A DNA stretch of 64,000 bases from Clostridia bacterium (GTDB lineage: Bacteria > Bacillota > Clostridia > Christensenellales > Borkfalkiaceae). The translations under genes and the position numbers were made by a program. Below are positions 4,478 to 46,112 of this stretch, one piece after another. The notes under the pieces were generated by a model that was given only the letters and a program-made list of their open reading frames with translations, made no database searches and was not told the origin of the DNA. The stretch spans positions 2,328-66,327 of the forward strand of contig JAGAJI010000029.1 of assembly GCA_017626135.1 (NCBI GenBank). The letters are read 5' to 3'. The number at the start of each line of letters is the position of its first letter. Within the stretch, counting starts at the first letter, position 1.

Positions 4478-4511
4478 ACCCTGCCCCGTGGCGAAAGCCA
4501 CGGGGCAGGGT
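4478..4511. terminator. Shared terminator hairpin between convergent genes
   Basis: ACCCTGCCCCGTGGC-gaaa-GCCACGGGGCAGGGT. The A-run on the + side gives a U-run for the minus-strand aminopeptidase transcript. The 3' arm is a 17/20 copy of the dispersed GGGGCAGG motif. Confidence 0.75.
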
Positions 4512-4528
4512 TGCGTTCAACGCAAAAA

Positions 4529-5803
4529 TTATCGTATAATAACGCCCTTTTCGTCGCGAAGGAAGGTCGAGCCGTAGAAAGCGGAAAGTCCCTTTTTCAT
4601 CTCCTCGTAATCGGCTTTGGCAAAACACTCGCAAGCGGCGTGCATGGCAAGCTGAGGAAGTCCGATATCCGCGCCGAGCATACTCGTGTGGCGGAGCGCC
4701 AAAGCGCCCAACGTGCTGCCGCTGCGTACGTCCGAGCGGTTGAAGAAGGTCTGATAGCGCACCTCTGCGTTGTCAAACACCGTCTTGACGAGGGCGCTTG
4801 CCAAGCCGTCGGTGATATACGCCTTGTTGGCGTGATTTTTAAGCACCACGCCGCCGCCGAGCGCCGTTTTGTTGGTCGGGTCAGCCTTTTCGGGGTGGTT
4901 GGGGTGGACGGCGTGCGCGTTATCCACCGATAAGAGGAAGGAGGACGCGAGCGCTTTATAGTATTCGTTGTCGTCAAAGCGGAGCGCGTACGCGATACGG
5001 CGGAGTACGTTTTCGAGAAAATCCCCGTCTGCGCCTTCGCTCGTCAAGCTCCCCATTTCCTCGTTATTCATGCACGCGGCGATACAGACGCCGCTGACGT
5101 TTTCAAGCCCCACCAAGGCGGATAAAGAGGCGCATACGCTTGTCAGATTGTCGATGCGGGGCGAGGCTAAAAACTCGTCGTTTACCCCGAACGAATAGGG
5201 CACGTCTGCGTTCACGAGGAAAAGATCGTGGGAAATCACCCCTTTGCCTGCAATTTTTTCCAGCAGATCCGCGGAGTTCTCCACGCCGCAAGATAAGCTC
5301 ACGAGGGGGGCTAAATCTACCTGCGCGTTGACGGCAAAGCCGTCGTTGGCGTTCCGATTTTGATGAATGGCAACGGAGGGAATGACGACGCGGAAGGGGG
5401 ATTCTACCACTTCTTCATACAGGCGGTCGTTCTCCTTTTTGATGACGCGCCCGGCGATCTGCAAGGGACGGTCGAAGAAGGAGTACCAAATGCCGCCGCC
5501 GTAGGTCTCCGTGTTGAGGGTGGCGTAGAGCGCGGATTTTTGCAAGGGGTTTTCCTTGAGTTTGAGCGCGGGGGAGTCGGTGTGCGAGGCGACGATTTTA
5601 TAAGAAAATTCGTTGAGCGCGCCCACCGTGAACGCAACGAGCGCTCCGCCGCGGACGACGTAATATTTGCCGCCCTCTGCGATCTGCCAGTCCTCCGTCT
5701 CCGAAAGTTTTGTAAACCCTGCGCGCAAGAGCAACCCCTCCGCCTCTTTCACGGCGTGGTAGGGGGTGAGGGAATTTTGTAAATAGGGAATGAGACGATC
5801 CAT
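4529..5803 (-). CDS. M18-family aminopeptidase (second paralog)
   Basis: ASHTDSPALKLKENP motif. I place the start at the ATG at 5803 (MDRLIPYLQ...), preceded by GGAGG. The 52 extra N-terminal codons in the track ORF (to 5959) have no SD and read like non-coding sequence. Confidence 0.85.
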   Translation of the reverse strand: MDRLIPYLQNSLTPYHAVKEAEGLLLRAGFTKLSETEDWQIAEGGKYYVVRGGALVAFTVGALNEFSYKIVASHTDSPALKLKENPLQKSALYATLNTETYGGGIWYSFFDRPLQIAGRVIKKENDRLYEEVVESPFRVVIPSVAIHQNRNANDGFAVNAQVDLAPLVSLSCGVENSADLLEKIAGKGVISHDLFLVNADVPYSFGVNDEFLASPRIDNLTSVCASLSALVGLENVSGVCIAACMNNEEMGSLTSEGADGDFLENVLRRIAYALRFDDNEYYKALASSFLLSVDNAHAVHPNHPEKADPTNKTALGGGVVLKNHANKAYITDGLASALVKTVFDNAEVRYQTFFNRSDVRSGSTLGALALRHTSMLGADIGLPQLAMHAACECFAKADYEEMKKGLSAFYGSTFLRDEKGVIIR

Positions 5804-6002
5804 ACGATACCTCCGAAAAGTCTTTTTGATATATCGTCGTAAACGTGTAACGACGTAATTATTGTAACATTTTTTTTCGCGTTTGACAAGTCTTTTGAAG
5901 AAGAAATTTTCGCAAAGGCTCCCCCTTTTCATGAGTGTTTTGTGAAACTGCGTTAACAATGTGAAAGTTTTGTAAAATCAAATGAAATCGTCACTTAATC
6001 TC

Positions 6003-6031
6003 TTGACAAAAAAGGGAATACTATCTATAAT
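6003..6031 (+). promoter_or_regulatory. Consensus sigma-A promoter of the marR-ABC operon
   Basis: TTGACA (6003-6008), a 17-nt spacer, TATAAT (6026-6031). An imperfect inverted repeat CTTGTAAT...ATACAAAG just downstream (6035-6054) is a possible MarR operator. Confidence 0.7.
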
Positions 6032-6067
6032 ATGTCTTGTAATCAAAATACAAAGTGAGGTACTCGT

Positions 6068-6547
6068 ATGTCTAAAAAAGTCAAAGAAACGACGAATCAA
6101 AGCGCAGAAAATTATCTGAAAGAAATTTTTACGTTGGTGCGCAAAGTAGAGACGCTGACCACAGCGGACAAAAAAACCCTTTTTAACAACACCGAATTCC
6201 GAATGCTCGGTGAAATCATCTGCGCCAAGTATGCAGGCAAACGAGTCATTTCGACGCAGCTTGCCCAAATACTCGGCGTTACCCGTTCGGCAATTTCTCA
6301 GATGGTGAGCCGCCTGGAAGAGCAGGGCGTAGTCAAGCGCGTGCCCGACAGCGTGGACAGGAAGATTGCCTACGTGGAGCTCACGGAAAAGACGTACGAA
6401 ACCTATCGGAAGGATTTGGAAGTATACGTCAATTTCGTGGATAGACTGGTGGAGAAGTTCGGCGCGGAACGCTTCCATACAATGATTTCCCTCGTCGACG
6501 AGTTTTGTGGGTTGGCGATGGAGGAAAAATCGAATATCGCTTTATAA
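6068..6547 (+). CDS. MarR-family transcriptional regulator
   Basis: Winged-helix segment ...ISTQLAQILGVTRSAISQMVSRLEEQGVVKRVPDSVDRKIAYVELTEKT. 159 aa. Sits first in an operon with the exporter. Confidence 0.85.
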   Translation: MSKKVKETTNQSAENYLKEIFTLVRKVETLTTADKKTLFNNTEFRMLGEIICAKYAGKRVISTQLAQILGVTRSAISQMVSRLEEQGVVKRVPDSVDRKIAYVELTEKTYETYRKDLEVYVNFVDRLVEKFGAERFHTMISLVDEFCGLAMEEKSNIAL

Positions 6548-10363: not shown

Positions 10364-10384
10364 GGGGGCAGGTATGCGTTGAAC
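10364..10384 (+). repeat. Dispersed motif copy A: GGGGGCAGGTATGCGTTGAAC
   Basis: Lies 16 nt after the hydrolase stop codon. It contains an SD-like G-run plus ATG CGT TGA (M-R-stop). Confidence 0.9.
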
Positions 10385-11640: not shown

Positions 11641-13641
11641 ATGAAAAGGAGAGTTTGGGCGCGCTTCAAGCGCGCGGCGGCGCTCCTTGCCGTGGTGCTC
11701 GTATGCCTGTCCTGTACGCTGTTTGGTGGGGGCAGGTATGCGTTGAATACCATTTCCGCATATGCATATGCGGAGAGCGGAGACTATATCGCGATTCACA
11801 AGTACGATTTGGAGATGACCGTGCGTGAGGATCGAAAGATCGAGGTGGAAGAGCATATCACCGTGGAATTCCTGCGGCAATATAACGCCTACATGGAGGA
11901 CATTACGATGTTCTACCGCTCTCTGCCCATCGAAGGTGCGCGGTATTCGAAAATCAAGGCGAGCTGTGCAGGGAACGACGCGTTCGTCTACTACGTGGAA
12001 GACAATCCCGACGACAGCTCCTTCGTGGATATCTGTTGCGTGGGGAACGCGGATAAGGGCAAGACCTGGACGTACGATATTTCCTACCTCATGGAGCAGA
12101 ATACCGACAATAAGGAAAACGGCATGATTATCGACATCGTCGGGTTCGGCTGGACGGTGGCACTCCACGACGTGACGGTGCAGGTACATTTGCCTGCCGC
12201 CGTTCAGGCATCCGATTATCGCGTACATACGGATATCTTCGGCGTGAGCAACGCCAACGAAGTGACCCATTCCCTGTCTGCGGACGGTAAGACGATCACC
12301 ATGTCGGCGGAAGTTTTGAGACAGGGGTACAGCGGCTATTACGACGAATACGTGACGGGCGGTATTACCTTGGAGTTTGCTCTGCCCGAAGGCACGCTGG
12401 ACAATTATCTGGCGACCCGCATTTTCACCGCGGAGTTTTTCTGGATCTTGCTCGGTTCGGTCGGAGCGGTGGTGCTCGCGTTCGTGCTTCGCAATTTTGC
12501 GAAGTCGAACAGAGAGCTCGTCACGGTGGTCAACATCAAAGCGCCCGACATGATGGATCCTCTCAAAATGGGGAAATTGTTGGACGGCTCGGTGGATAAC
12601 GAGGATATCACCTCGATGATCTACTATTTTGCGAACAAGGGATATCTGCGGATCGATTTGTCCGACGAGAACGACCCCGAGCTCATCAGTCGCGTGCTCT
12701 GTTTGCCTGACTCGGAGCCCGTATACGCCAAGACGCTCTTTCAGGGATTGTTCGAAAATGGGCGCGTGATCGACGGCGGATTGCTCAAAGCTGCACGCAT
12801 TTCGGAGCTGGTCGGGCCCTTCTACGATAAGATGCAGCAAGCCAAGTTGCAAGTGCCCAAGAACCCTACCATGTACGAGACGAAGTCCGTTTGGGGGTAT
12901 ATCGGCGGCTGTGCGCTCGCCGTGCTTTTGGGATTTTTGACCTGCCTTTTTATGAGCAAACGCCTGCACGGCAGCTATAATTACTTTTTGGGCGTCGTGT
13001 TCGCCTTGCCCGTTCTTATCATCGGCGTGATGGGCTATATGAGCGAAAATTATCGCTATAAATGGAAACCCAAGCAACAGCGGGGAATGTTGCTCGGGCA
13101 GATCGCGATCGCCGCGGTGGCGTCCCTTCTGTTCGCCTGGCTGTTCGCCGGATTTATCATGACGCCGTCCGAAAAGCTTGCGCTCTGCGTGGGCGTGTTC
13201 TGCACGTGCTTTACGACGCGCGGCGTACTTTCCCGTACGGAGGAGTACGACAAAATACTCGGCGATATCCTCGGATTTAAGGATTTCATCGTCGTGACGG
13301 AAGAGGATAAAATCAAATTCATGCTTGAAGAAAATCCCGAGTTGTATTATAAGATACTGCCCTACGCGCAGGTGCTCGGGGTGACGGACGAGTGGGAGAG
13401 CAAATTTGAAAAGATCACCGTGCAACCGCCCGAATGGTGCTCGGGTTCTTCGCTGTCGACGTTCGATTATTATCTGATCTATCGTTGCATACACCGCGCG
13501 ATGATGCGGGAAATCGCCAAGGAGTTGGCGAGAAGAAACGACAACGGCGGCGGTGGTCACGTCGGTCACAGCGGCGGTGGCGGAAGCTTCGGTGGTTTCG
13601 GCGGCGGCGGCTTCGGCGGCGGTGGCGGCGGAGCAAGATAA
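11641..13641 (+). CDS. DUF2207-domain membrane protein (LemA partner)
   Basis: ATG at 11641 sits right after the lemA stop. It has a signal/TM, a large extracytoplasmic domain, several TM helices and a Gly-rich tail GGGGHVGHSGGGGSFGGFGGGGFGGGGGGAR typical of DUF2207. Confidence 0.85.
   Translation: MKRRVWARFKRAAALLAVVLVCLSCTLFGGGRYALNTISAYAYAESGDYIAIHKYDLEMTVREDRKIEVEEHITVEFLRQYNAYMEDITMFYRSLPIEGARYSKIKASCAGNDAFVYYVEDNPDDSSFVDICCVGNADKGKTWTYDISYLMEQNTDNKENGMIIDIVGFGWTVALHDVTVQVHLPAAVQASDYRVHTDIFGVSNANEVTHSLSADGKTITMSAEVLRQGYSGYYDEYVTGGITLEFALPEGTLDNYLATRIFTAEFFWILLGSVGAVVLAFVLRNFAKSNRELVTVVNIKAPDMMDPLKMGKLLDGSVDNEDITSMIYYFANKGYLRIDLSDENDPELISRVLCLPDSEPVYAKTLFQGLFENGRVIDGGLLKAARISELVGPFYDKMQQAKLQVPKNPTMYETKSVWGYIGGCALAVLLGFLTCLFMSKRLHGSYNYFLGVVFALPVLIIGVMGYMSENYRYKWKPKQQRGMLLGQIAIAAVASLLFAWLFAGFIMTPSEKLALCVGVFCTCFTTRGVLSRTEEYDKILGDILGFKDFIVVTEEDKIKFMLEENPELYYKILPYAQVLGVTDEWESKFEKITVQPPEWCSGSSLSTFDYYLIYRCIHRAMMREIAKELARRNDNGGGGHVGHSGGGGSFGGFGGGGFGGGGGGAR
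11728..11748 (+). repeat. Dispersed motif copy B: GGGGGCAGGTATGCGTTGAAT (inside CDS)
   Basis: Matches copy A at 20/21 positions. It lies within the DUF2207 signal region (encodes GGGRYALN). Confidence 0.9.
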
Positions 13642-14402: not shown

Positions 14403-14414
14403 AGCGTGTTTACT

Positions 14415-14449
14415 CCGAAAAGAAAGGGGATTTGGATTCCAAATCCCCC
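14415..14449 (-). terminator. Rho-independent terminator of the YegP-repeat gene
   Basis: GGGGATTTGG-att-CCAAATCCCC, with a U-run on the minus strand (plus-strand GAAAAGAAA). Confidence 0.75.
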
Positions 14450-14465
14450 GAAGGTATTGCGCGGT

Positions 14466-17196: not shown

Positions 17197-17213
17197 GGGG
17201 GCAGGTATGCGTT
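17197..17213 (+). repeat. Dispersed motif copy C: GGGGGCAGGTATGCGTT (used as a real translation initiation region)
   Basis: Starts directly after the TGA at 17193-17195. Its ATG (17207) is the start codon of the next flavoprotein gene. Confidence 0.9.
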
Positions 17214-33050: not shown

Positions 33051-33075
33051 AAGCAAAAAACAAGGAGAAAACGGC

Positions 33076-34977: not shown

Positions 34978-34989
34978 GGAGGAAAGGAT

Positions 34990-35712: not shown

Positions 35713-35750
35713 GGCATTGCCTAAATAAAATAATAGGAGAATAATCATTT

Positions 35751-36917
35751 ATGGTAACACTTCAAACAGCGGATAACGCATTAAAATCTTTTTATCTCGA
35801 CGCGATGACGGACGCGCTCAACTTGAAAATCAATCCCTTGCTTGCACAGATCCAGCGTACCACCGCAAACGTCGTGGGTAAGGACGTGAGAAAGACGGTG
35901 CGCGTGGGCGTCAACGGCGGCATCGGCGCCGGCTCGGAAACGGGAGATCTTCCCACCTCCGGCGGGGGCGAATACGTGCAGTTCGTCGCAACCTTGAAAA
36001 ACTTGTACGGCACGATTGAGATTTCCGACAAGGCGCTCCGCGCGTCCGCAAACAGCGAGGGCGCGTTCGTCAACTTGCTCAACGAAGAGATGAGTTCGCT
36101 CGTCAAGAGCGCCTCCTTCAACTTCGGCAGAATGCTTTTCGGAGACGGCAAGGGGAGACTTGGTAAGGTGCTCGAGGTGAACGAGAATACAATCACATTG
36201 AGCTCTACGAAAGGGATTTTGGAAGGCATGATCGTCGGCTTCTGCACCGCAGGCGGCGCAGCGATCGCCGTAGCGCAAAAACGCAAGGTGCTTTCCGTCG
36301 ACAAGGCGAACTCCACGATTGTTTTAGACGGCGCGGCGCTCAACACGACTCTCTTGCCCGTGAACAGTATGCTTTATTTGCAGGATTCCAACCGCAACGA
36401 GATCACCGGTTTGGGCGCGATCTTTTCCACGAACGCGCTGTACGGCGTGGAGAGAACGCACTCCGTGATGCAGCCCTATATGAAGACGGAGGTGGGCGAG
36501 ATCACCGAAAACGTCATTCAGACTGCCATCGACGCCATCGAGGAAAACTCGGGCAGTCAGGTCAACTTCATCGTTTGCTCCTGGGGGGTGAGACGTGCGT
36601 TGGCGGAATACTTCAAGCAGTTTAAGACTATGCTGCCCACCATGGAGCTCGAAGGCGGTTTCCACGCGATGAGCTTTAACGGCATTCCCATCGTGGCGGA
36701 CAGATTCTGCCCGGAAGGAACCATGTACCTGTTGAACACCGACGACTTTGCCGTTCATCAGCTCTGCGACTGGCAATGGCTCGAAAGCGAAGACGGTAAA
36801 ATCCTCAAACAGGTTGCCGGGAAACCCGTATACACCGCGACGCTCGTGAAGTATGCGGAACTTATGTGCGATCGTCCGAGCGGTCAGGGTATGTTGAGCG
36901 GTATCACCGAAGCGTAA
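35751..36917 (+). CDS. Major capsid protein (HK97-fold type)
   Basis: 388 aa, following the scaffold gene. N-terminal NALKSFYLDAMTDALNLK...; C-terminal ...YTATLVKYAELMCDRP. Followed by a strong terminator, as is common for highly expressed capsid genes. Confidence 0.7.
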   Translation: MVTLQTADNALKSFYLDAMTDALNLKINPLLAQIQRTTANVVGKDVRKTVRVGVNGGIGAGSETGDLPTSGGGEYVQFVATLKNLYGTIEISDKALRASANSEGAFVNLLNEEMSSLVKSASFNFGRMLFGDGKGRLGKVLEVNENTITLSSTKGILEGMIVGFCTAGGAAIAVAQKRKVLSVDKANSTIVLDGAALNTTLLPVNSMLYLQDSNRNEITGLGAIFSTNALYGVERTHSVMQPYMKTEVGEITENVIQTAIDAIEENSGSQVNFIVCSWGVRRALAEYFKQFKTMLPTMELEGGFHAMSFNGIPIVADRFCPEGTMYLLNTDDFAVHQLCDWQWLESEDGKILKQVAGKPVYTATLVKYAELMCDRPSGQGMLSGITEA

Positions 36918-36926
36918 GAGCCAAAC

Positions 36927-36967
36927 AGAGTACCCAGGTATGCGTTGAGTTACTTGGGTACTCTTTT
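36927..36967 (+). terminator. Rho-independent terminator/attenuator after the capsid gene
   Basis: A 14-bp stem AGAGTACCCAGGTA / TACTTGGGTACTCT followed by TTTT. The loop and 5' arm carry the dispersed motif core CAGGTATGCGTTGA (36935-36948). Confidence 0.8.
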
Positions 36968-36992
36968 ATAACCGCAGAAAAGGAGGGAGAAT

Positions 36993-37535
36993 ATGAAAGT
37001 GAAAGAGATTGTGCTCTCGGCGGCGGAGTCGCTGGGGCTTGGGGAGGGCGTGTCCGCGTTTTTCGACGGCGGGGATCCCTGCCTGCAACGGGAGGCGGAG
37101 CTCCTGCTCGCTTGTTTCAACCGCGTGGAAAGGAGCCTTGCGCTCGAATATTTGCCGCTTTACGCCGAGGACGAGTTGCTTACCGTCGACGATGAGGTGG
37201 AATATTCGGCGTTGACCTACGCGCCCGTCCGCATTTTAGGGGTGGAAAACGGAGCGGGCGAATCCGTTCCGTATAAGCTCTATCCGCGATACTTAAAGGC
37301 GGTGTCGGGGAAGATCAAGGTGACCTACACCTATACGCCGAACGCCAAAACCATCGACGACGACAGCGATTTTACCCTGCCGTCCGTGCTTGAACACGGG
37401 ACGTTGGCGGAATACTGTCTGTCGGAAGGTCGGTTGGCGGAGTCCGCCGTCTGGGAGCAAAAATATAAGCAAGAGATCGAAGGGGCGTTCCGTGGCAAGA
37501 AGTACAAGCGCCTGCGTTCGAGAAGGTGGGTGTGA
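36993..37535 (+). CDS. Hypothetical phage structural protein (head completion/connector candidate)
   Basis: 180 aa. GGAGGGAG SD. Its stop overlaps the next start (TGATG), implying translational coupling. I recognise no family signature. Confidence 0.5.
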   Translation: MKVKEIVLSAAESLGLGEGVSAFFDGGDPCLQREAELLLACFNRVERSLALEYLPLYAEDELLTVDDEVEYSALTYAPVRILGVENGAGESVPYKLYPRYLKAVSGKIKVTYTYTPNAKTIDDDSDFTLPSVLEHGTLAEYCLSEGRLAESAVWEQKYKQEIEGAFRGKKYKRLRSRRWV

Positions 37536-38872
37536 TGGCGATCGGCGAAACGAAACGGAGAAAGCACGCGACGTTTTCCTTCTCCTTGCAGGAGAGGGGG
37601 AAGAATGTACTTTTGGCGAAGGAGAGCGTCAACTGCGACTGTCGTCTGGGCAGCTTGAAATCGGGCATGGGCGCGACGCCTTTGCGCAAAAGCGACGGTT
37701 CAACGCATACCTGCCCCGAGGGTAACGTCACGCATATCGTCATTCGCAAGGATTTGGACGACGAGACGAAGACCTATACCGAACGCATCGGCGCGTTGAC
37801 GGACGAGGGCGCGTTTTTCTTGCAGAGCGCTCTGGACGGAGAATTTACGCAGATCACGGTCAACGTTTTCGCGCCCGGGATCGTGCAATTCGCAGGGACG
37901 GATTCCCGGTATAAGCTCGCCGTCATCGGGGAGACGATGTGCGCCTTCCTGCGCGAGGACGACTCCTTTGATTTGGCGATGATGGACGGAATGAGCCGTA
38001 TCGGTTGTTTCTTCGCACACCGTATGTTCATCGGCGTCAAACCCTCCACGCTGACGTGTTCGGCGCCCGAAAACGTGCAGAGTTTCGCCCCGTCCATCAA
38101 CGACGGCGGACTCATTCGCTTTCCCAACGCGGGCGGAATGATGGTGGCGATGCAGGTGTATGAGGAGCGGCTGTACCTGTTTTTCGAGTACGGGATTTTG
38201 CGCGTGGACGCCAAAGGTGCGGTCAAGGACTTCAAGGCGGAGCAGTTGCCATACACGGGCGGCAAGATCTACGGGAAGAGCGTCTGCGCGGGCGTGCGCG
38301 GCATCTATTTCCTCGCCTCGGACGGTGTGTATCATTTCGACGGCAAGTGGACCAAACGGGTGTTGGACGGGTTTGTCCTTTGCCCGAAAGGGGAGACGTT
38401 GCTTGAAAGCAGCGCCGCGTTTGCCGGGCGGGTATTCTTGCGGTACGAGACGGACGAGGGCTACAAAACCTTGGTGTTTTACGAAGGGGAAGAGAGTGGG
38501 TATTATACGGACTTTTTCCCCATATTTAACAAGGACGACGGGGGCAAGTGTTTGTTCGCGGAGCCCGATCGCAAAATTTACGAATTTTCCGAACGGGGCG
38601 AAAAGGGCGCGGACGGGAGCTTTTCGAGCGAGGAAACGGACTTGGGCACGGGCGTGCGCAAGACGCTCACCAACCTGTATTTTACCGGTCGCGGCAGCTT
38701 TACGTTGACGGTGAAAACGGGGGGAAGAAAACTCGTGCGAGAGCTGACCTTTCAAGAGGGCAGGGCGGAGGTGCGGTTGTCGGAAAGCGGCGAGCGATTC
38801 TCCTTCGACTTCGCCCTTCCGTACGGTTCGGAGGTGAGCTCCATGTCGGCGGCGTACCTGCCCTTTGCTTAA
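37535..38872 (+). CDS. Hypothetical phage structural protein, repeat/beta-rich
   Basis: 445 aa. The ATG at 37535 overlaps the upstream TGA. Recurrent ...Y.F..DG.Y..DG... strands suggest a beta-propeller-like fold. Function unknown. Confidence 0.5.
   Translation: MAIGETKRRKHATFSFSLQERGKNVLLAKESVNCDCRLGSLKSGMGATPLRKSDGSTHTCPEGNVTHIVIRKDLDDETKTYTERIGALTDEGAFFLQSALDGEFTQITVNVFAPGIVQFAGTDSRYKLAVIGETMCAFLREDDSFDLAMMDGMSRIGCFFAHRMFIGVKPSTLTCSAPENVQSFAPSINDGGLIRFPNAGGMMVAMQVYEERLYLFFEYGILRVDAKGAVKDFKAEQLPYTGGKIYGKSVCAGVRGIYFLASDGVYHFDGKWTKRVLDGFVLCPKGETLLESSAAFAGRVFLRYETDEGYKTLVFYEGEESGYYTDFFPIFNKDDGGKCLFAEPDRKIYEFSERGEKGADGSFSSEETDLGTGVRKTLTNLYFTGRGSFTLTVKTGGRKLVRELTFQEGRAEVRLSESGERFSFDFALPYGSEVSSMSAAYLPFA
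37698..37717 (-). repeat. Dispersed motif copy H (only minus-strand copy): reverse complement reads GGGGCAGGTATGCGTTGAAC
   Basis: A 20/20 match to copy A (10365-10384), lying inside a + strand CDS. Confidence 0.9.
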
Positions 38873-38884
38873 GGAGGAGAAATC

Positions 38885-39370
38885 ATGACCATTGACATCA
38901 TCAGTTATACGGACGAGCAGTACGCGCTTTTGACGCTGGAACAGCTCAAGGAAGTCCGTTCGGCGCAGACGAAGAAGGATAAGCTGAAAATCGAGCTGGA
39001 CGCGGCGTTGCAAACCGCCAAAAATTCCCTCGTAAAAAAGGGGATCTACAATTCGGGACTCTATGCTCTCATCGAGAAGAAACTGCAAGCGGAGTATACC
39101 CAACAGGTGGAGTTGATCCGCGACGGCTTGCAGTTTTACCTTAAATATTCGATGCAACCGGACGGTTCGGCGTGGGACGCACCTTATCCCATCAATTTCG
39201 CGTTGTCCTACGAGGCTCGGTTCAACGTCGTGCGCAACTACTATGACACCACTTACGAGAACGCTTCGATACGTTTCGAAACTTTCCAACAAGACGTCTT
39301 CGCGCCTCGGTACTTAGGGGAACTGTACGAATCCCTCTACGCACATTACCGAGGCATGGCGATGGCGTAA
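38885..39370 (+). CDS. Hypothetical protein (last gene of phage-like module)
   Basis: 161 aa. GGAGGAGA SD. I recognise no family signature. Confidence 0.5.
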   Translation: MTIDIISYTDEQYALLTLEQLKEVRSAQTKKDKLKIELDAALQTAKNSLVKKGIYNSGLYALIEKKLQAEYTQQVELIRDGLQFYLKYSMQPDGSAWDAPYPINFALSYEARFNVVRNYYDTTYENASIRFETFQQDVFAPRYLGELYESLYAHYRGMAMA

Positions 39371-39381
39371 AGAATATCAAA

Positions 39382-39408
39382 AACGCAGGCGAAACGCTTG
39401 CGTTTTTC
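39382..39408 (+). terminator. Rho-independent terminator closing the phage-like operon
   Basis: AACGCAGGCG-aaa-CGCTTGCGTT followed by TTTT. A TGgTATAAT promoter for dut follows at 39418-39426. Confidence 0.8.
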
Positions 39409-39457
39409 GTCGTTTTTTGGTATAATATAGGCGTATGGAAGAAAAGGAGGGGACGGT

Positions 39458-39898
39458 ATGCCCACGGTTGCAGTAAAAAAATTAGAGGAAAGAGCGGTTT
39501 TGCCCACCTACGGTTCGGAGTATTCCGCAGGCGCGGATCTGTATGCGTTGACGGAGGAGGAACTCGTCTTCGCTCCGGGAGAAACCAAACTCGTGCGTAC
39601 GGGGCTTGCGATGGAAATTCCCGAAGGATACGCAGGACTCATCTATGCGCGGAGCGGGCTTGCTTCCAAGCGGGGGTTGGCGCCTGCCAACAAAGTGGGC
39701 GTCGTGGACGCCGATTATCGCGGAGAGATCATGGTGGCGCTCCACAACCATTCGAATACCGAGCAGAAAATTGCGCCGCAGGAGCGTATCGCTCAGCTCG
39801 TGATCACTCCCTTTTTGAAAGCGGAGTTCGAGGAGCGCGAGTCCCTTTCGGACACCGTGCGCGGCAGCGGCGGGTTTGGCAGCACGGGCACGAAGTAA
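39458..39898 (+). CDS. dut: dUTP diphosphatase
   Basis: 146 aa with trimeric dUTPase motifs: AGADLYA, GLIYARSGL, VGVVDADYRGEI, RIAQLVI, RGSGGFGSTG. Confidence 0.92.
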   Translation: MPTVAVKKLEERAVLPTYGSEYSAGADLYALTEEELVFAPGETKLVRTGLAMEIPEGYAGLIYARSGLASKRGLAPANKVGVVDADYRGEIMVALHNHSNTEQKIAPQERIAQLVITPFLKAEFEERESLSDTVRGSGGFGSTGTK

Positions 39899-39917
39899 GG
39901 AAAAAGAGGTAGAAAGT

Positions 39918-40607
39918 ATGTCCATGAGAATGAGGAAAAAGCGCAATTTCGACGCACGCATGGAGGCGTGCGGGGATTTGCTCCTCGCCAAGGGCGCGGG
40001 CGGTATTTTGAACATGAAAGAGGCGGCGGAGAACTATCGCAACCTCGTCGATTTTTCCAAGGCGTTCGGGAACGACAATCCCGTGGCGCTTGAAATCGGG
40101 TGCGGAAAGGGGGGCTTCGTCATCGCGCTCGCCAAGGAAACGCCGAACATCAACTATCTGGCGTTGGAGAAGATGAGCAACGTGATCTTAACGCCCATGG
40201 AAGAGGTGAAAAAGCAGGGAATCGACAATATCCGTTTTCTCAATATCCGCGCGGAGTGCCTGCCTTGCTATATTCCCGAGGGGAGTCTCGACGCCATCTA
40301 TCTCAACTTTTCCACCCCTTTGCCCAAGCTCGGCTACGCGACCCAAAGGCTCACGCACAGAAACTTTTTGGAGAAGTACAAAAAACTGCTCAAAGTGGGC
40401 GGACGCATTTTGCAAAAGACGGACGATCGGGATTTCTTCGAATTCTCGTTGGGGGAGTACGAGGCGTGCGGGTTCGCGCTTGAAAACGTGACGTACGATC
40501 TGCACGAAGGGGGCAACCCCGACTGGAACGTCGTCACCGAGTACGAGCAGAAATGGGTGGAGCGGGGCTTGCCCATTCACCGCGTGGAAGCCGTGTATAA
40601 AGGATAA
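39918..40607 (+). CDS. trmB: tRNA (guanine-N7)-methyltransferase
   Basis: LEIGCGKGGF SAM motif, NIRFL, YLNFSTPLPK, FLEKYKKLLKVGGRILQKTD. I prefer the start at ATG 39918. Confidence 0.85.
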   Translation: MSMRMRKKRNFDARMEACGDLLLAKGAGGILNMKEAAENYRNLVDFSKAFGNDNPVALEIGCGKGGFVIALAKETPNINYLALEKMSNVILTPMEEVKKQGIDNIRFLNIRAECLPCYIPEGSLDAIYLNFSTPLPKLGYATQRLTHRNFLEKYKKLLKVGGRILQKTDDRDFFEFSLGEYEACGFALENVTYDLHEGGNPDWNVVTEYEQKWVERGLPIHRVEAVYKG

Positions 40608-40851
40608 CGACGTGAAAAAGACGACTGACGCCGCCCTTATTTTGGAATAAGAGCGGCGTCTTTGCGCTCCGCCGCATATGCCCGATACCGCATACGGCAA
40701 TATCTGCCAAAAAAATTTTTCGAAAATCGCAAATTTTTTCTCCGTTCCCCCTTGAAAATTTCACAATTATATGATATAATAAATAAAAATATTTTTATTT
40801 TTTATATTGACGTACGCGCGTAAACGATTTCGCGCCGAAAAGGAGGCTTTT

Positions 40852-42849
40852 ATGTTGAATGTAGAGAACGGTTGTGTAGACTGCGCTTGTGAGAGCGCGT
40901 TGGAAAACGCATGGAAAATATTGACGGCGAGCAAGAAGAGAAACTTCGTCGTCGTGCAGATCGCACCCGCGGTGCGCGTATCGATCGGCGAAAAGTTCGG
41001 TCTTACGCGCGGCGAGGATAGCGTGGGCAAAGTGGTGGCGGTGCTCGAATTGCTCGGCGCGGACGCCGTGGTGGATACGGCGATCGCCTCGGACGCGATC
41101 ACGCTGATGAAATTGAAGAAAGTGCGTCAAAACAAAGAGACGGGCGCGGGTACGGTGTACTCGTCCGAGTGCCCCGGTTGGCGACGCCACGCGAAAAAGA
41201 ACTATCCCGAGATCGAGCTTTTGCCTACGGCGACCAGCGTCTGCGCGAAGCTTTTGAAAAAGTATTACAGCGAAGCGGAGCCCGGCAAAAAAATCCGTGT
41301 GATTGCGTTGGAAATGGGCAAGGGCAAGAAGGACGAGCCCGGCGTCGACCTCGCGTTGACCCTCGACGAACTCGGCATTCTCGTCAACAGTCTGGAAACG
41401 AGCGTTCGTTTGCTCAAAAAGAAACCTTTGGCTACGCCGCTCGGCATCGGTTCGGGCGCGAGCTATATCGCGGCGGCAAGCGGCGGCGACGCAGAGGCGT
41501 TGGCACGTTGTTTGACGACGGAAAAAAATCAGCTCCATTACAGAAAATTCGAATATAGCGGTTTGTACGGGAAGGGCTCCCGTCGCGAAGCGGTGATGAC
41601 GCTTGGCGGCGAAGAATGGAAATTCGCCGTGGTGGACTCCGTGGCGGCGGCGGACGCTCTGCTTGCCGATATCGAGGCGGGCGCACGGTACGACTACGTG
41701 GAGATCACGGCTTGCGCAGGCGGTCAGATCGGCAAGGGGTGCGACTTATCCACCGAACAGGGCGAAATGACGAGAAGGTTGCGGCACCTTGGCTTGAAAT
41801 ATCTCGACCGCGCTCGTGCGGCGCGCTCCGCAGAAACGAACGCTCCTGCGGCGGCACTCCTCAAATCGTGGAACGCCCTCTGCCGTAGTGGCGAGGCGGC
41901 GGCTTACGACGTCATCGATGAAATCGTGGAAGACTTCGACGAAGTCGAGGAAATCGTAGAGGAACCTGTCGAGGAAGTCGTCGAAGAGACTCCCGTGGAA
42001 GAGACGGTAGAAGAACCTGTCGAAGAAACTCCCGTCGAAGTGGTAGAAGAAGTTGTCGAAGAGACTCCCGAGGAAGTGGTCGAAGAAGTCGTCGAAGAGA
42101 CTCCCGTGGAAGAAGTTGTAGAAGTCGTCGAAGAAACTCCTGTCGAGGAAGTCGTAGAAGAAGTCGTCGAAGAGACTCCCGTGGAAGTGGTCGAAGAAGT
42201 CGTCGAAGAGACTCCCGAGGAAGTGGTCGAAGAAGTTGTCGAAGAAACTCCTGTCGAGGAAGTCGTAGAAGAAGTCGTCGAAGAGACTCCCGTGGAAGTG
42301 GTCGAAGAAGTTGTCGAAGAAACTCCTGTCGAGGAAGTTGTAGAAGAAGTAGCCGCAACGGAAACGGAAGTCGTCGAAGAGGTTGCAGAAGAACCCGTCG
42401 TCGAGGAAGTTGTCGAAGAGACTCCCATCGAAGAACCCGTCGAAGAGGTTGTCGAAGAACCTGTCGTCGAGGAAGTTGCAGAAGAACCCATCGTCGAAGA
42501 AGTCGTTGAAGCAGTCGTTGAAGAAGCTCCCGTTGAAGAACCAGTCGAAGAGGTTGTAGAAGAACCCGTCGTCGAGGAAGTTGCCGAAGAGGCTCCCGTG
42601 GAAGAAGAACCCGAAGAGGAGGTTGTGCTCACCGCGGATAAGGAAGCGGAACTGATGCAACAGGTCAGCGCGGAAGAACTCGCCGAGGAAATGAAACACG
42701 TGGAGGAGCTTTTAGACGTAGCCGAAGAAGATTTGACGTTGGCGCAGAAGCTGGCGAGGGCGCATTACTATCGCCGTCTGTCCACGAAGGAACGCCGTAA
42801 ACTCAAGAGATTGAGAAAGAAGATGAAGAACGGCAAAAACAGAAAATAA
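40852..42849 (+). CDS. [FeFe]-hydrogenase large-subunit-like (H-domain) protein with degenerate cluster ligands and long acidic repeat tail
   Basis: AAGGAGG precedes ATG 40852. The H-domain-like blocks are VVQIAPAVRVSIGEKFG, SSECPGW (canonical TSCCPxW), ALEMGKGKKDE (canonical MPCxxKxxE) and EITACAGGQIGKGC. A roughly 235-aa (E/V/P/T) repeat follows, then a basic tail RRLSTKERRKLKRLRKKMKNGKNRK. Confidence 0.7.
   Translation: MLNVENGCVDCACESALENAWKILTASKKRNFVVVQIAPAVRVSIGEKFGLTRGEDSVGKVVAVLELLGADAVVDTAIASDAITLMKLKKVRQNKETGAGTVYSSECPGWRRHAKKNYPEIELLPTATSVCAKLLKKYYSEAEPGKKIRVIALEMGKGKKDEPGVDLALTLDELGILVNSLETSVRLLKKKPLATPLGIGSGASYIAAASGGDAEALARCLTTEKNQLHYRKFEYSGLYGKGSRREAVMTLGGEEWKFAVVDSVAAADALLADIEAGARYDYVEITACAGGQIGKGCDLSTEQGEMTRRLRHLGLKYLDRARAARSAETNAPAAALLKSWNALCRSGEAAAYDVIDEIVEDFDEVEEIVEEPVEEVVEETPVEETVEEPVEETPVEVVEEVVEETPEEVVEEVVEETPVEEVVEVVEETPVEEVVEEVVEETPVEVVEEVVEETPEEVVEEVVEETPVEEVVEEVVEETPVEVVEEVVEETPVEEVVEEVAATETEVVEEVAEEPVVEEVVEETPIEEPVEEVVEEPVVEEVAEEPIVEEVVEAVVEEAPVEEPVEEVVEEPVVEEVAEEAPVEEEPEEEVVLTADKEAELMQQVSAEELAEEMKHVEELLDVAEEDLTLAQKLARAHYYRRLSTKERRKLKRLRKKMKNGKNRK
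41910..42625 (+). repeat. In-frame tandem coding repeats (36-39-nt units, higher-order duplications) encoding VVEETPVEEVVEE-type acidic repeats
   Basis: Near-identical units such as GAAGTGGTCGAAGAAGTCGTCGAAGAGACTCCCGTG recur. Blocks around 42040-42170 and 42175-42300 are close duplicates. Confidence 0.9.
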
Positions 42850-42900
42850 CGAGGGGGCGCGGCGGTAAAAACGCCGCGCGCTTTCTACAAAGGAGAAAAC

Positions 42901-43914
42901 ATGAAAAAAGGATTTGTAAAAGGGGTGGCGCTCGCTTGCGCTTTTGTGTGCGTGGGGTTGAGTGGTTGTCGCCCGAGCGTGCCCGACGGAGAAATTACGG
43001 TGTATATGCCTGACGGGGCGCCTGCGTTGGCGCTTGCCAAACTCATGCACGAGGACACCGAGGACGACGGAGTCACCTATCGCGTAGTGGATTCGAGCTT
43101 GATTTCGTCCAAAGTGACGAATCGGGACGCGGCAAAGAATGCCGACGTATGCGTCCTGCCCGTCACGGCGGCGGCAAAACTGCTTGGAACGGGGGAGACA
43201 TACAAGATGCTCGGCACGGTCACGCACGGCAACTTGTATCTGCTCGCCAAGGAAGAGGGCGCAATCACGGCGGAAAATTTGAGCACCCTCGTCGGCAAAA
43301 AGGTGGGGGTGTTGCAGATGACGAGCGTCCCCGGCCTCACCTTCAAAGCGACGTTAAGTAGCCACGGCATCGCATGGCAGGAAGTGACGAACGAGGGGGG
43401 CATGGTCGAGGATAAGGTCAATTTATTCGCTATTTCGGGGGCGGACGCCGTCGGCGTCATCGAGGCGGATTACTTCATGATTGCCGAGCCTGCGGCAAGC
43501 GCGCAGAGCAAGAAGGGGTACTCCATCGTCGGCAACGTGCAGACCCTCTACGGCGGAGAAAATGGGTTTCCACAGGCGGCGCTCGTCGCTAAAAACAGCT
43601 TGCTCGTCGAGCACGAGGACTGGGTAAAATCCTTCGTGGAGAGGGTGGACGGCGCTTCGGCGTGGCTGACGGAGACGGACGGACAAACGCTCGTAGCGAC
43701 GGTGAACGCGCATATGGACGATAGGACTTCGGAGACGTCCTTGAAGGCGCCCTTGCTCACGCAGACGGCGCTTGCAGGTTGCGGGATCCGCTTTACCTAC
43801 GCCGCAGCCGATTTTGAAGAGGTCAACGCATTTCTGACGAAATTGCTCCTCGTCAACGATAAGGCGACGGCGATGCCTTCTGAAAACTTCTACTGGACGT
43901 ATTTTGAACCATGA
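42901..43914 (+). CDS. ABC transporter substrate-binding lipoprotein (NMT1/THI5, NitT/TauT-type)
   Basis: Signal peptide with lipobox VGLSGC. Periplasmic-binding-like sequence. The ATGA overlap with the permease gene implies coupling. Confidence 0.7.
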   Translation: MKKGFVKGVALACAFVCVGLSGCRPSVPDGEITVYMPDGAPALALAKLMHEDTEDDGVTYRVVDSSLISSKVTNRDAAKNADVCVLPVTAAAKLLGTGETYKMLGTVTHGNLYLLAKEEGAITAENLSTLVGKKVGVLQMTSVPGLTFKATLSSHGIAWQEVTNEGGMVEDKVNLFAISGADAVGVIEADYFMIAEPAASAQSKKGYSIVGNVQTLYGGENGFPQAALVAKNSLLVEHEDWVKSFVERVDGASAWLTETDGQTLVATVNAHMDDRTSETSLKAPLLTQTALAGCGIRFTYAAADFEEVNAFLTKLLLVNDKATAMPSENFYWTYFEP

Positions 43915-44666
43915 GAAAAATACTTGCAAAAACTGCATGGCAGACGTTGGCGGCAATCGGATTTTTGATCGTCGTTTGGGCGTGTCTGTATCTGGCGGCG
44001 GGGAACGAGCTTCTCGTGCCCTCGCTATTTGCGTGCTTTGCGGAAATGGGCGCGCTCCTTGGGAGCGGCGCTTTCTGGATAGCGCTTCTGGCGAGTTTCC
44101 TACGCGCGTTGGAGGCTTTCGCAATCTCTTTCGTTTTCGCTTTGATTTTTGCAATCATCGCGTACCTGGTGCCCTCGTTTGAAAAATTATTCGCGCCTTT
44201 GGCGTCCGCGCTCCGCTCTCTGCCCGTGCTCGCGGTGCTACTTATCTTACTCTCGGTGCTCAGCGCCGGGCAAGCCCCCGTCGCCGTGGCGTTTTTGTCT
44301 CTATTTCCCATGCTGTACACGGGAATTTTGGCGGCACTTTCGGGCGTGGACAAGCAGGTTATTGCCATTAGTCGCGTACATGGTACCCCTCTATGGCGAA
44401 AAGTAACCCGTATTTATCTGCCTCTTTCTGCTCCGTATATTCTGCGTGAATCGGGGGGAGCGCTCGCCTTTTCCTTGAAGCTCGTCGTCTCGGCGGAAGT
44501 TTTGGCGAACACGGCGAAAAGCTTGGGGGGCATGATGCAGGAGGCGAAAATCTACGCGGAAATTCCCGAGCTTTTCGCGCTCGTCTTCGCGACCTTTTTC
44601 GTAGGACTTCTTTTGGAGCTCGCCGCAACGGCGCTCGCTTCGTACGTGCAAAAGCGTATGCAATAA
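43911..44666 (+). CDS. ABC transporter permease (NitT/TauT family)
   Basis: 251 aa, about 6 TM helices. EAA-like loop ...ISRVHGTPLWRKVTRIYLPLSAPYIL. Confidence 0.8.
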   Translation: MRKILAKTAWQTLAAIGFLIVVWACLYLAAGNELLVPSLFACFAEMGALLGSGAFWIALLASFLRALEAFAISFVFALIFAIIAYLVPSFEKLFAPLASALRSLPVLAVLLILLSVLSAGQAPVAVAFLSLFPMLYTGILAALSGVDKQVIAISRVHGTPLWRKVTRIYLPLSAPYILRESGGALAFSLKLVVSAEVLANTAKSLGGMMQEAKIYAEIPELFALVFATFFVGLLLELAATALASYVQKRMQ

Positions 44667-44741
44667 TTTTTAGATTCAAACCGCATTTTTATCGCGAATC
44701 GTTTGTCGTTCGATAAAATATAAAAATACGAGGAAAAAAGA

Positions 44742-45359
44742 ATGGATATTAAGCAGTTTCAATGGACGAGAGAACCCAAATCTTACAAAATTGACGAGGA
44801 TAAAGTGGAGATCGTCACCGCACCCAACACCGATTTGTGGCAGAGAACGTATTATCATTTTCGCAACGATAACGCACCCGTGTTTCAGATGGAGACGGAG
44901 GAAAAATATTTCAGTTTCCTGGTAAAGACGGAGTTCTTAGAAAGTCATCACCGTTTCGATCAATGCGGCGTCGTTTTATATCTCGACAGCGAGAACTGGC
45001 TAAAAGCCTCTATCGAATACGAGAACGACGAATTTCAGCATTTGGGGAGCGTCGTCACGAACATGGGATACTCGGACTGGGCTACGACGGAAATTTCGGC
45101 TCGCGTCAAATCCATGTGGTACCGTTTGAGTCGTCGTGAGGACGATTACTGTATCGAATGTTCGGAGGACGGCGTACGATTCAAACAGATGCGAGTCTGC
45201 CATTTGCATCAGGGGGCAGGCAGGATCCGATTCGGCATTTATGCGTGCTCCCCCGAAAACTCTTCCTTTAAGGCGGTATTCACCCATTTCCGCTTGACCG
45301 AGTGTCAATGGAAAGCGCACGACGGGCAACAGCCGGACGAAGGGTGCGTTTCTGAATAA
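44742..45359 (+). CDS. DUF1349-domain protein (concanavalin-A-like fold)
   Basis: The N-terminus F.WTREPKSY.IDEDKVEIVTAPNTDLWQRTYY.F..DNAP is characteristic of DUF1349. Confidence 0.75.
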   Translation: MDIKQFQWTREPKSYKIDEDKVEIVTAPNTDLWQRTYYHFRNDNAPVFQMETEEKYFSFLVKTEFLESHHRFDQCGVVLYLDSENWLKASIEYENDEFQHLGSVVTNMGYSDWATTEISARVKSMWYRLSRREDDYCIECSEDGVRFKQMRVCHLHQGAGRIRFGIYACSPENSSFKAVFTHFRLTECQWKAHDGQQPDEGCVSE

Positions 45360-45365
45360 AGTTTG

Positions 45366-45397
45366 AAAAAAGTTCCGAAAAAAATCGGAACTTTTTT
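45366..45397 (+). terminator. Rho-independent terminator
   Basis: AAAAAAGTTCCG-aaaaaaat-CGGAACTTTTTT. Confidence 0.8.
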
Positions 45398-45458
45398 ATA
45401 AAATCGCTTGTTATTATCGATAAAAAGTCGTATAATGATAAAAAAGGAGAGGAAGCGT

Positions 45459-46112
45459 ATGAAAGAAACGGGCGTAAAAAAACACGTTGATGCGAAAGAC
45501 ATTTCCAAAGCGACGGTGGCGCGTATGCCGCTGTATCTGCATTTTTTGCAGGAAGAGGCGTCGAAGGGGGCGCAGTATATCTCTTCCACGGTCATCGCGC
45601 AGAACATTTCCGTATCCTCGGTGCTGGTGCGCAAGGATTTGGCGCTCGTGTCCTCGGAGGCGGGCAGACCCCGACTCGGCTTCGCCATCAGCCGTCTGAT
45701 CGTCGACATTGAAAAATTTTTGGGCTACGATATCCTTTCCGACGCCGTGATCGTGGGCGCCGGGGGACTGGGCAGAGCATTTCTGGGTTACGAGGGATTC
45801 AAGAATAACGGACTCAACATCGTCGCGGCGTTCGACGTGTCCGAAAAGCTCATCGGCACCAACGTGCTGGGCAAGGAAATTTTGCCCATTTCCGAGCTCG
45901 ACGCCTTCGTCAAAGAACACAAGATCCGCATCGGGATCATCACCGTACCCAAAGCCGCTGCGCAGGAGGTTTTGAACGAAATGGTGGGGGCAGGTATCAA
46001 AGCAATCTGGAATTTTGCGCCGGCGCCCCTGCGTGCGCCCAAGGACGTCGTACTCAAAACGGAGGATCTGGCGGCGTCGCTTGCCATGCTTGCAGGAAAA
46101 CTCTACACCTGA
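45459..46112 (+). CDS. rex: Redox-sensing transcriptional repressor Rex
   Basis: AAGGAGAGG precedes ATG 45459. N-terminal ISKATVARMPLYLHFL. Rossmann motif VIVGAGGLGRAF. The C-terminus is typical of Rex. Confidence 0.9.
   Translation: MKETGVKKHVDAKDISKATVARMPLYLHFLQEEASKGAQYISSTVIAQNISVSSVLVRKDLALVSSEAGRPRLGFAISRLIVDIEKFLGYDILSDAVIVGAGGLGRAFLGYEGFKNNGLNIVAAFDVSEKLIGTNVLGKEILPISELDAFVKEHKIRIGIITVPKAAAQEVLNEMVGAGIKAIWNFAPAPLRAPKDVVLKTEDLAASLAMLAGKLYT

Follow-up and report, generated by a model that had tools for sequence, protein, structure and literature searches.

A clade-specific 19-nucleotide word of gut Clostridia with features reminiscent of DNA uptake sequences

The systems closest to the element described here are the DNA uptake sequence (DUS) of Neisseriaceae, GCCGTCTGAA, and the uptake signal sequence (USS) of Pasteurellaceae, AAGTGCGGT with A/T flanks, both of which have cores of 9-12 nt and are defined by the preference of competent cells for taking up DNA that carries them. 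To our knowledge, competence in Gram-positive bacteria is regarded as sequence-blind. Other chromosomal words are read directionally, such as the FtsK orienting polar sequence (KOPS) of E. coli (GGGNAGGG, 8 nt, FtsK) and the SpoIIIE recognition sequence (SRS) of B. subtilis (GAGAAGGG, SpoIIIE). DUS and USS pairs occur within terminator hairpins, with one configuration preferred (PMC1852404), one orientation of uptake sequences is favoured inside reading frames (PMC2346458), and the USS has A/T-rich flanks (PMC7811141); a bias of DUS toward genome-maintenance genes has been described in work cited by PMC2817400 and PMC2346458. Here we analyze a dispersed 19-nt word, GGGGCAGGTATGCGTTGAA, found in a 64,000-nt stretch of DNA from a common gut species of Clostridia (assembly GCA_017626135.1, contig JAGAJI010000029.1, positions 2,328 to 66,327; hereafter the window). 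We tentatively read it as a lineage-specific signal that acts at the level of DNA, resembles DUS and USS and is kept by biased transfer, an interpretation that is plausible and still somewhat short of probable.

Distribution, placement and anatomy of the word

The word and its parts are referred to by length: 9-mer for GGGGGCAGG, 12-mer for GGGGGCAGGTAT, 19-mer for GGGGCAGGTATGCGTTGAA and 20-mer for GGGGCAGGTATGCGTTGAAC. The 12-mer occurs on the + strand of the window at 10364, 11728, 17197, 24561, 32700 and 45986, with zero copies on the − strand; these six copies compare with a mean of 0.09 in dinucleotide-preserving shuffles, even with one mismatch tolerated. The 20-mer is exact at 10365-10384 (+) and 37698-37717 (−), and matches at 19/20 positions at 11729 and at 17/20 positions at 4502, for a shuffle expectation of 0. 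Furthermore, the 9-mer is found additionally at 33032 and 45212, CAGGTATGCG is present again at 36935, and AAAAGGAAGGGGGCAGGTATG is common to the copies at 24553 and 32692. With two coding tandem-repeat tracts set aside, the motif is the most repeated dispersed k-mer of the window. The 19-mer has nine + strand and two − strand copies at up to 4 mismatches, and 15 copies at up to 5 mismatches (0.8 for shuffled motifs); a surplus of degenerate copies extends out to 5-8 mismatches. The flanks of separate copies fail to align with one another, so the edges of the repeat are sharp and lie ~20-28 nt apart. An initial annotation of this DNA had proposed a non-random, over-represented and strand-biased dispersed motif, and every copy it placed was recovered at its position.

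The word is specific to a clade. The exact 19-mer was searched for in one genome per species (596 Gb), where chance predicts ~4.3 matches (2 x 596e9 / 4^19). The matches listed comprise more than 116 stretches from at least 57 assemblies, each a species representative, and the carriers among them are Candidatus Scatosoma or unclassified Clostridia/Clostridiales metagenome-assembled genomes (MAGs), the sole exception being one contig labelled Flemingiibacterium. These MAGs come from human, chicken and ruminant guts. A metagenome collection contributes more than 120 further stretches among the matches listed, and the IMG/VR viral collection a single exact 19-mer. The window species itself is represented in at least 128 blocks of the assembly index, and ten strains with 98-99.8% identity retain every copy in the regions covered. 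At up to 4 mismatches, the density is one copy per 6 kb in the window and one per 9 kb in 169 kb of syntenic DNA from eight related species (L258-L265), which was not selected for the motif and whose flavin adenine dinucleotide (FAD)-dependent protein is 71-81% identical. The sites turn over between species, which is what mutation-drive balance would predict for a dispersed signal. The literature searched yielded no paper that contains the sequence and none that reports uptake sequences in this clade.

The statistics on location, strand, flanks and hairpins refer to the exact copies among the matches listed in the genome-representative and metagenome sets, with gene calls from a self-trained codon model. 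The 122 exact copies of the genome set divide into 70-73 intergenic, 35 genic sense and 14 genic antisense; the independent metagenome set gives a genic sense to antisense ratio of 32:14. Thus ~40% of copies are genic and ~60% lie between genes, for the most part at 3' ends and often 6-35 nt past the stop codon. The gaps between genes hold copies as follows.

Between co-directional genes, sense orientation: 25-26 copies
Between co-directional genes, antisense orientation: 9 copies
Between convergent genes: 15 copies
Between divergent genes: 3 copies

The genes on either side of copies have housekeeping roles (tpiA in four species, serine dehydratase in three; also rimM, clpP and others), and the intergenic sites 3' of tpiA and serine dehydratase recur across species. 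In the loci sampled, the 67 neighbouring genes include no transposase, REP-associated tyrosine transposase (RAYT) or GIY-YIG gene. In L033, L068 and L111 the terminator past tpiA has a motif hairpin whose perfectly conserved arm lies on differing strands depending on the species; because this arm switches strand, the antisense intergenic count is inflated.

Within genes, the word is conserved as DNA. The sense copies use two open frames and encode GGRYAL(N/K) or (G/R)GQVCVE, and the antisense copies use three, encoding QRIPAP, FNAYLP or STHTCP. In AddA, 21 consecutive nucleotides are identical in seven species, every synonymous site included, while the surrounding 600 nt are 61-70% identical (83% for one closer species pair); this set was chosen for exact matches, and the share of species without the site is not derivable from it. 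Recurrent genic sites are also found in AddB, MutY (antisense), TatD (antisense), RsmF, an ABC exporter and an ArsP-like permease. The antisense copies are themselves conserved, in MutY across three species of the genome set plus four metagenome contigs and in TatD across three plus three. The exporter segment RFYDVDGGQVCVEGKDIR and the N-terminus of MutY align colinearly and without gaps with distant PDB homologues, so these two copies were written by substitution rather than insertion. At the C-terminus of a CysK-like (PALP) protein, the PDxGxRY codons vary among eight species and approach the motif in some, a pattern that shows what appears to be motif creation in progress.

Alignment of 116 unique instances extends the consensus to AAAAGGAAG followed by GGGGCAGGTATGCGTTGAA and CGC. 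The flank consensus consists of a T-rich stretch (-17 to -14), AAA (-8 to -6), A (-3) and G (-1) ahead of the 19-mer GGGGCAGGTATGCGTTGAA, and an A/T tract at +23 to +27. A(-6) is conserved at 83%, the GGA of the flank at only ~46%. The A/T-rich tracts recur about one helical turn apart, with centres near -26, -16, -8, +25, +37 and +47, and the flank preferences are equal in intergenic, sense genic and antisense genic copies. This alignment rejects a longer mobile element as the source of the repeat, since the flanks show no similarity beyond position-specific A/T and A/G preferences.

Eighteen of the 226 exact copies (~8%) form an in-register perfect hairpin, GGGGCAGGTATGCG-TTGAA-CGCATACCTGCCCC, with a T run behind it; the example that was folded gave -33.4 kcal/mol (z -8.8). 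By their sequence, these copies are predicted intrinsic terminators. Further copies have a shifted or decayed 3' arm, and ~90% of all copies are half-sites unable to form the hairpin, such as window copies 10364 and 32700, which fold no better than shuffles. Elsewhere the word forms part of other structures: in L017 and at window 36931 it supplies the loop of an unrelated terminator, and in L112 and at window 4502 it is the 3' arm of another hairpin. Rfam and tRNA scans of the window returned no matches, and a known RNA family was discarded as an explanation because the sole Rfam overlap is the cobalamin riboswitch (RF00174, 69-80 bits) in four other species. There the exact 19-mer lies within the riboswitch (L021:5897-6115, L037:295-517, L059:6086-6295, L117:4314-4551), in a variable stretch directly 5' of the conserved 3' ...GCCGGGAGACCTGCC segment; GGGGCAGG of the motif could pair with ACCTGCC of that segment.

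Copies in the window and its prophage

The copies recognized in the window are listed below by position, strand and setting.

4502-4520, +: degenerate copy with 3 mismatches, between a leucine-rich repeat (LRR)/collagen gene and a convergent M18 peptidase gene
10365-10383, +: exact 19-mer (20-mer to 10384), intergenic, 16 nt past the hydrolase stop and upstream of a DUF378 gene
11729-11747, +: exact 19-mer in the DUF2207 gene (true start 11641), encoding GGRYALN directly past the signal peptide
13877-13895, +: degenerate copy with 4 mismatches, antisense in a CAT-family acetyltransferase gene (13782-14402, − strand)
17198-17216, +: copy with 2 mismatches (TTGAA to TTTAC), beginning 2 nt past the stop of the HI0933-like gene
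24562-24580, +: 3-mismatch copy preceded by a complete AAAAGGAAG flank, 9 nt past the HAD gene stop; a separate terminator follows
27943-27961, −: degenerate copy with 4 mismatches, in sense orientation within gene 27108-29507 (− strand)
32701-32719, +: prophage copy with a complete 5' flank and 3 mismatches, 13 nt past the terL stop, overlapping a small open reading frame (ORF) start; unstructured
33033-33051, +: degenerate copy with 4 mismatches, at the 3' end of small phage ORF 32715-33050
33561-33579, +: degenerate copy with 4 mismatches, inside the portal gene
36931-36949, +: partial copy CAGGTATGCGTTGA, which makes up the loop and upper stem of the hairpin terminator past the capsid gene (-23.2 kcal/mol, z -4.4)
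37699-37717, −: exact 19-mer (20-mer 37698-37717), antisense inside phage gene 37526-38872
45212-45220, +: 9-mer GGGGGCAGG only, left out of the motif-copy count
45986-45997, +: only the 5' 12-mer, which lies in the Rex gene and codes for GAGI in the nucleotide-binding fold

The initial annotation had placed most copies just after stop codons and two inside terminator hairpins. The gene calls agree with its map: several copies do follow stops closely (hydrolase +16 nt, HI0933 +2, HAD +9, terL +13, capsid +18), and folding bears out the hairpins at 4502 and 36931. The post-stop placement is often true, yet it under-weights the copies that lie inside genes (11728, 13877, 33032, 33561, 37717 and 45986). 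The Rex copy is weak or partly coincidental, its 3' half being non-matching. At 4502, GGGGCAGGG is the 3' arm of a bidirectional terminator hairpin (~4478-4511) that folds at -44.8 kcal/mol (z -8.6) and is followed by the mini-palindrome GCGTTCAACGC, which is C/T polymorphic among strains. Across strains L128-L137 (window 4478-4521) the mini-palindrome varies (GCGTTCAACGC vs GCGTTTAACGC) and the long hairpin is invariant.

Counterparts in the eight related species differ from site to site. The copy at 10365 is a half-site without a hairpin (fold z 0.05) that is identical in 10 strains, and has a weak counterpart in only one of the eight species; the copy at 13877 has a weaker counterpart in L259. 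At the DUF2207 site the exact 19-mer is present in L259 and L260, and has moved to the gene start in L261 and L262. The gene is annotated ~35-50 codons shorter in L261 (5064-5082) and L262 (5236-5254), and its start there coincides with the motif copy or lies inside it; in the window species (11641-11747) and two others the motif is located past the signal peptide. Either the start has shifted onto the SD-like (Shine-Dalgarno) and ATG sequence of the motif, or the annotations differ.

At 17207 the ATG of the motif was claimed to be a genuine gene start, and it is indeed the called start of the FAD-dependent protein gene; a motif copy occupies the same gene start in 8/8 related species. The TGA is always altered at these eight starts, which is what makes the motif ATG usable as the start of the FAD protein. 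The 17198 copy is thus co-opted as the ribosome-binding site and translation start of this gene.

A further observation concerns the copy past the HAD gene. The window species lacks a ~0.9 kb CysK-like PALP gene that is present between HAD and mgtE in 8/8 relatives (window 24553-24640; L258-L265). Homology to the HAD/PALP junction stops at 24560, and homology to the PALP 3' end begins at 24562. The breakpoints fall in two motif-like sequences, AAAAGGAAC joined to AGGGTATG and GGGGCAGGTATCG, and the 24561 copy is therefore a deletion junction. Such copies may provide microhomology at which deletions form.

Positions 31251-44666 form a prophage-like block with a T4-type large terminase (terL at 31251), a P22/SU10-type portal, an SU10-type major capsid protein and an adaptor. 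Two related stretches with ~70% nucleotide identity, L011 (IMG/VR) and L220 (metagenome), carry the exact 19-mer at the same post-terL spot in poorly conserved surroundings. In a third (L120, a related prophage of another MAG, also ~70% identical) the post-terL copy is absent, and an exact copy lies near the end of the small ORF in an unaligned stretch. The tag is shared by phages resident in the clade and not by phages in general. A phage origin or pac site was rejected, with a single exact IMG/VR copy and none in or upstream of the putative small-terminase region, and 15-mer matches in viral contigs were dismissed as chance.

Other features of the window include in-frame tandem repeats spaced ~36-75 nt (41970-42600) in a 680-aa phage-region gene (40807-42849), and in-frame 69-nt tandem repeats (3797-4300) in the LRR_5/collagen-repeat gene (2420-4444). 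Among strains, this second gene varies more than any other part of the locus, with 81-92% identity in L136 and L137 against 98-99% elsewhere. Finally, a giant ORF on the + strand (53657-64000, >3,448 codons) runs off the end of the window with a high coding score and positive AT skew. It probably encodes a giant surface protein, with a faint MBG-domain match, and has zero motif copies at up to 4 mismatches in 10 kb.

Strand bias and competing explanations

Raw skew at third codon positions (GC3 skew) was abandoned as a proxy for replication direction because it is confounded by a sense-strand C3>G3 codon bias, and a two-component model was used in its place (sense-strand c = -0.074, replication-strand r = 0.11), applied to stretches of 8-64 kb. 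In the window itself, GC3 skew splits by gene strand, being ~0 for + genes and -0.18 to -0.31 (sense) for − genes (4529-5959, 13782-15833, 19388-21019 and 25247-29507). The split indicates a codon-level C3>G3 preference combined with a replication component of similar size, and offers a way to infer which strand is leading in short contigs from this clade. With the correction, the inferred leading strand carries 76 of 91 exact copies, and 69 of the 91 point the same way as the local gene; where the two disagree (n = 17), 12 follow replication and 5 transcription (one-sided p ~0.07).

Exact copies overall are distributed between the inferred leading and lagging strands at 82:18, i.e. 4.6:1. The 19-mer word has 9 G and 2 C, and G/C of 0.265/0.211 in the oriented loci gives an expected ratio of (G/C)^7 = 4.9:1. 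Composition-matched shuffled words reach a lead to lag ratio of 2.0 at 8 mismatches, rising to 4.2 at 3 mismatches. Since GC skew alone predicts ~4.9:1 for such a G-rich word, the bias is a by-product that needs no polar function. Likewise, because the ratio fits the compositional expectation, unequal orientation does not argue against a mechanism that is blind to orientation. More generally, GC skew by itself is enough to generate a striking strand bias.

This bears directly on a polar signal, in which the motif or its G-rich 5' part GGAAGGGGGCAGG would be read directionally by FtsK or SpoIIIE, in the manner of KOPS and SRS, or by AddAB, in the manner of Chi. The initial annotation offered a KOPS-like role as one of its three mechanisms, and we consider it distinctly unlikely. 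Its appeal lies in the leading-strand majority, in the 12 to 5 division of discordant cases, in the 9:2 ratio of the window and in a ratio of 37:1 for copies with up to 5 mismatches in the 169 kb of unselected DNA. GGGCAGG is also similar to KOPS and GGAAGGG to the SRS, and one copy per 4-9 kb (one per several kb, as for KOPS and SRS) lies in the density range of Chi and KOPS; like Chi, the word is over-represented, leading-strand biased and conserved in its clade. However, the 82:18 bias, although real, is what composition predicts, and the 17 discordant cases are too few to decide. The conserved unit spans 19-28 nt, including a non-G-rich 3' half that is essential and A/T flanks, and is thus 2-3 times longer than the 8-nt G-rich word of KOPS and the SRS; known KOPS, SRS and Chi sequences measure 5-8 nt. 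Roughly 60% of copies fall between genes, chiefly near 3' ends, whereas Chi is mostly genic and not a terminator, and the perfect palindromes (~8%) put the word on both strands. No link to AddAB was seen beyond the addA and addB genes happening to carry copies. A scan of oriented loci for skewed 7-9-mers was dominated by codon-periodic GGCGGCGG-type words and was uninformative on KOPS. An intracellular protein site unrelated to uptake, bound by a nucleoid or chromosome-organising protein or by a single-strand nuclease of the Ssn/NTS type, also seems unlikely to us. The ~45 bp footprint, with A/T tracts phased about two helical turns to either side of the core, would suit such a protein, and a hairpin form exists. 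The Ssn targets (NTS/SRM) are oriented ~30 nt hairpin repeats that resemble CGTCATTCCCGCG..GCGGGAATC, occur in hundreds of copies beside a GIY-YIG ssn gene and modulate transformation (PMC11893778). They cluster around genes, flank ssn and are unrelated in sequence, showing no resemblance by inspection, whereas here 40% of copies are genic, ~90% are half-sites incapable of hairpin formation, and the flanking genes of the sampled loci include no GIY-YIG gene. Moreover, ordinary protein sites rarely need 19 or more exact bases or mark coding sequence in at least 57 species.

Explanations that act through RNA, transposition or translation account for fewer of the observations. A 3'-end element, i.e. 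a family of terminator or 3'-untranslated hairpins bound by an RNA-binding protein or RNase with decayed or incidental genic copies, would explain the many copies 6-35 nt past a co-oriented stop, the preponderance of sense copies in co-directional gaps (25-26 vs 9) and the strong predicted terminator folds of full copies. We judge it improbable: antisense genic copies are conserved across species (MutY, TatD) and keep the same flanks, most copies lack the 3' arm and are unstructured where folded (10364, 32700), and at some sites the motif is merely the loop of another hairpin (L017, window 36931). A mobile micro-repeat of the repetitive extragenic palindrome (REP) or miniature inverted-repeat transposable element (MITE) type was another of the proposed mechanisms; it would be spread by a RAYT or IS200/IS605-like transposase. 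The word is indeed dispersed, partly palindromic, enriched between genes and sharply bounded, and single-strand transposition would likewise give replication-strand bias. REP, REP doublets (REPINs) and NTS/SRM are comparable short dispersed repeats, partly hairpin-forming, with hundreds of copies and an oriented non-palindromic part; unlike the present word, they are extragenic, inserted as units and found flanking their cognate gene. Here, some hairpins notwithstanding, most copies are half-sites and 40% are genic. Both genic copies that were checked line up colinearly with distant homologues and were not inserted, orthologous sites approach the motif gradually by substitution, the neighbours are housekeeping genes with no Y1 transposase among 67, and neither target-site duplications nor flank similarity were found. 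This mechanism therefore appears very improbable and, for genic copies, largely refuted. The remaining proposal, a portable SD + ATG (+ stop) cassette where ribosomes would be parked or would re-initiate at the ends of operons, draws on a sequence readable as AAAGGAAGGGGG-N5-ATG-CGT-TGA, on the frequent location past stop codons, and on the FAD gene start in the window and 8/8 relatives and the DUF2207 start in two species. Yet the usual ribosome-binding site of the clade is AAGGAG/GGAGG (AGGAG at 51/129 starts; GGGGG at 10/129, mostly the FAD gene), so the motif is not the SD of the organism. The GGA is far less conserved than A(-6), the genic copies are one-third antisense and in part conserved across species, some copies are perfect palindromes or buried in hairpins, and the ATG is used only where the TGA is altered. 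The cassette is barely credible as the reason for the motif; SD and start-stop use is a co-option at a few sites. A promoter (sigma-54, a sporulation sigma factor or TTGAAC as a -35 element) was rejected, as the spacings to TATAAT of 20 nt (10364) and 13 nt (4502) misfit and copies favour gene 3' ends, with 15 convergent against 3 divergent gaps. Each of the three mechanisms in the initial annotation thus fits poorly, and an uptake-like tag was absent from that list.

Comparison with uptake sequences

From the clade restriction, the conservation of the word as DNA in any frame and on both strands, the substitution origin of the genic copies checked, the enrichment just outside genes, the terminator pairs, the phased A/T flanks and the tail of degenerate copies, taken together, we infer biased DNA uptake as the driving process. 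A protein of a DNA-transfer machine, most simply of the competence uptake apparatus, would bind the motif in double-stranded DNA, and DNA carrying the motif would be preferentially transferred and recombined. Point mutations that create the motif would then spread and those that destroy it would be lost, by molecular drive and possibly also by selection. Copies would build up where they are tolerated: past stops, as inverted terminator pairs, in hairpin and riboswitch loops, and at protein sites that are pre-adapted to the word (GGRY, GQVCVE, QRIPAP). Phages resident in the clade would come to carry the tag as well, and a few copies would be co-opted, as at the FAD-protein start at 17207. On the leading strand, which is G-rich, the word would arise and persist some five times as readily. 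That Candidatus Scatosoma and its allies practise sequence-specific uptake, or another biased transfer (e.g. by a domesticated phage-like particle), with a tag of ~20-45 bp is possible and, on balance, doubtful.

Several points weigh against this interpretation. The host organisms are uncultured MAGs, and no competence genes were seen among the window genes scanned, although no search for competence genes was made. The density is 5-10 times below that of classical USS and DUS, at ~1 per 8 kb for the 10-mer core and ~1 per 20-85 kb for exact 19-mers, and the exact conserved word is unusually long at 19-21 nt. Enzymes that act on DNA make up 6-7 of roughly 27-45 motif-bearing families (AddA, AddB, MutY, TatD, DnaX, Mrr and a methyltransferase assigned from sequence motif alone), which recalls the bias described for DUS, but this enrichment rests on small numbers and long genes. 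The two orientations are far from the near equality of DUS and USS, both among exact copies (82:18, as composition predicts) and at up to 4 mismatches in the 169 kb of syntenic DNA from eight species, where 19/19 copies occupy the G-rich strand; this 19:0 excess over composition is not significant because the loci are orthologous and represent perhaps 15 independent sites. The prophage of the window appears undepleted, with 4 motif copies in 15 kb, and USS and DUS are usually under-represented in recently acquired DNA. Finally, sequence-specific uptake is so far known from two Gram-negative families only (PMC7811141).

If the uptake-signal interpretation is true, this would be the first such system outside Neisseriaceae and Pasteurellaceae, evolved independently and readable straight from metagenomes. 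Active, species-restricted gene exchange in the gut could then be deduced from sequence alone, in a clade of abundant but uncultured gut Clostridia of humans and ruminants. It would also point to a receptor, and to genetic tractability through tagging of donor DNA. The tag could aid binning and host assignment, as it marks the DNA of the clade including that of its phages. Whatever its function, a 19-21-nt word imposed on coding sequence in at least 57 species is a strong and unexplained constraint.

Compared with DUS and USS, the word differs in its Gram-positive-type Clostridia host, its 19-21 nt core, its 5-10-fold lower density, a strong strand asymmetry that composition can explain and the apparently undepleted prophage. 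It agrees with them in being a clade-specific word that is common to many related species and far over-represented. Again as in DUS and USS, copies are found in genes, in several frames and on both strands, are enriched between genes and, at the two genic sites checked, derive from substitution at tolerant protein positions; inverted pairs are intrinsic terminators with the G-rich arm first (18/226), and a tail of degenerate copies is present. The phased A/T-rich flanks recall the USS, and the bias toward genome-maintenance genes possibly recalls the DUS. What appears to be new is an uptake-signal-like word in a Gram-positive-type lineage, with a longer core and a skew set by composition.

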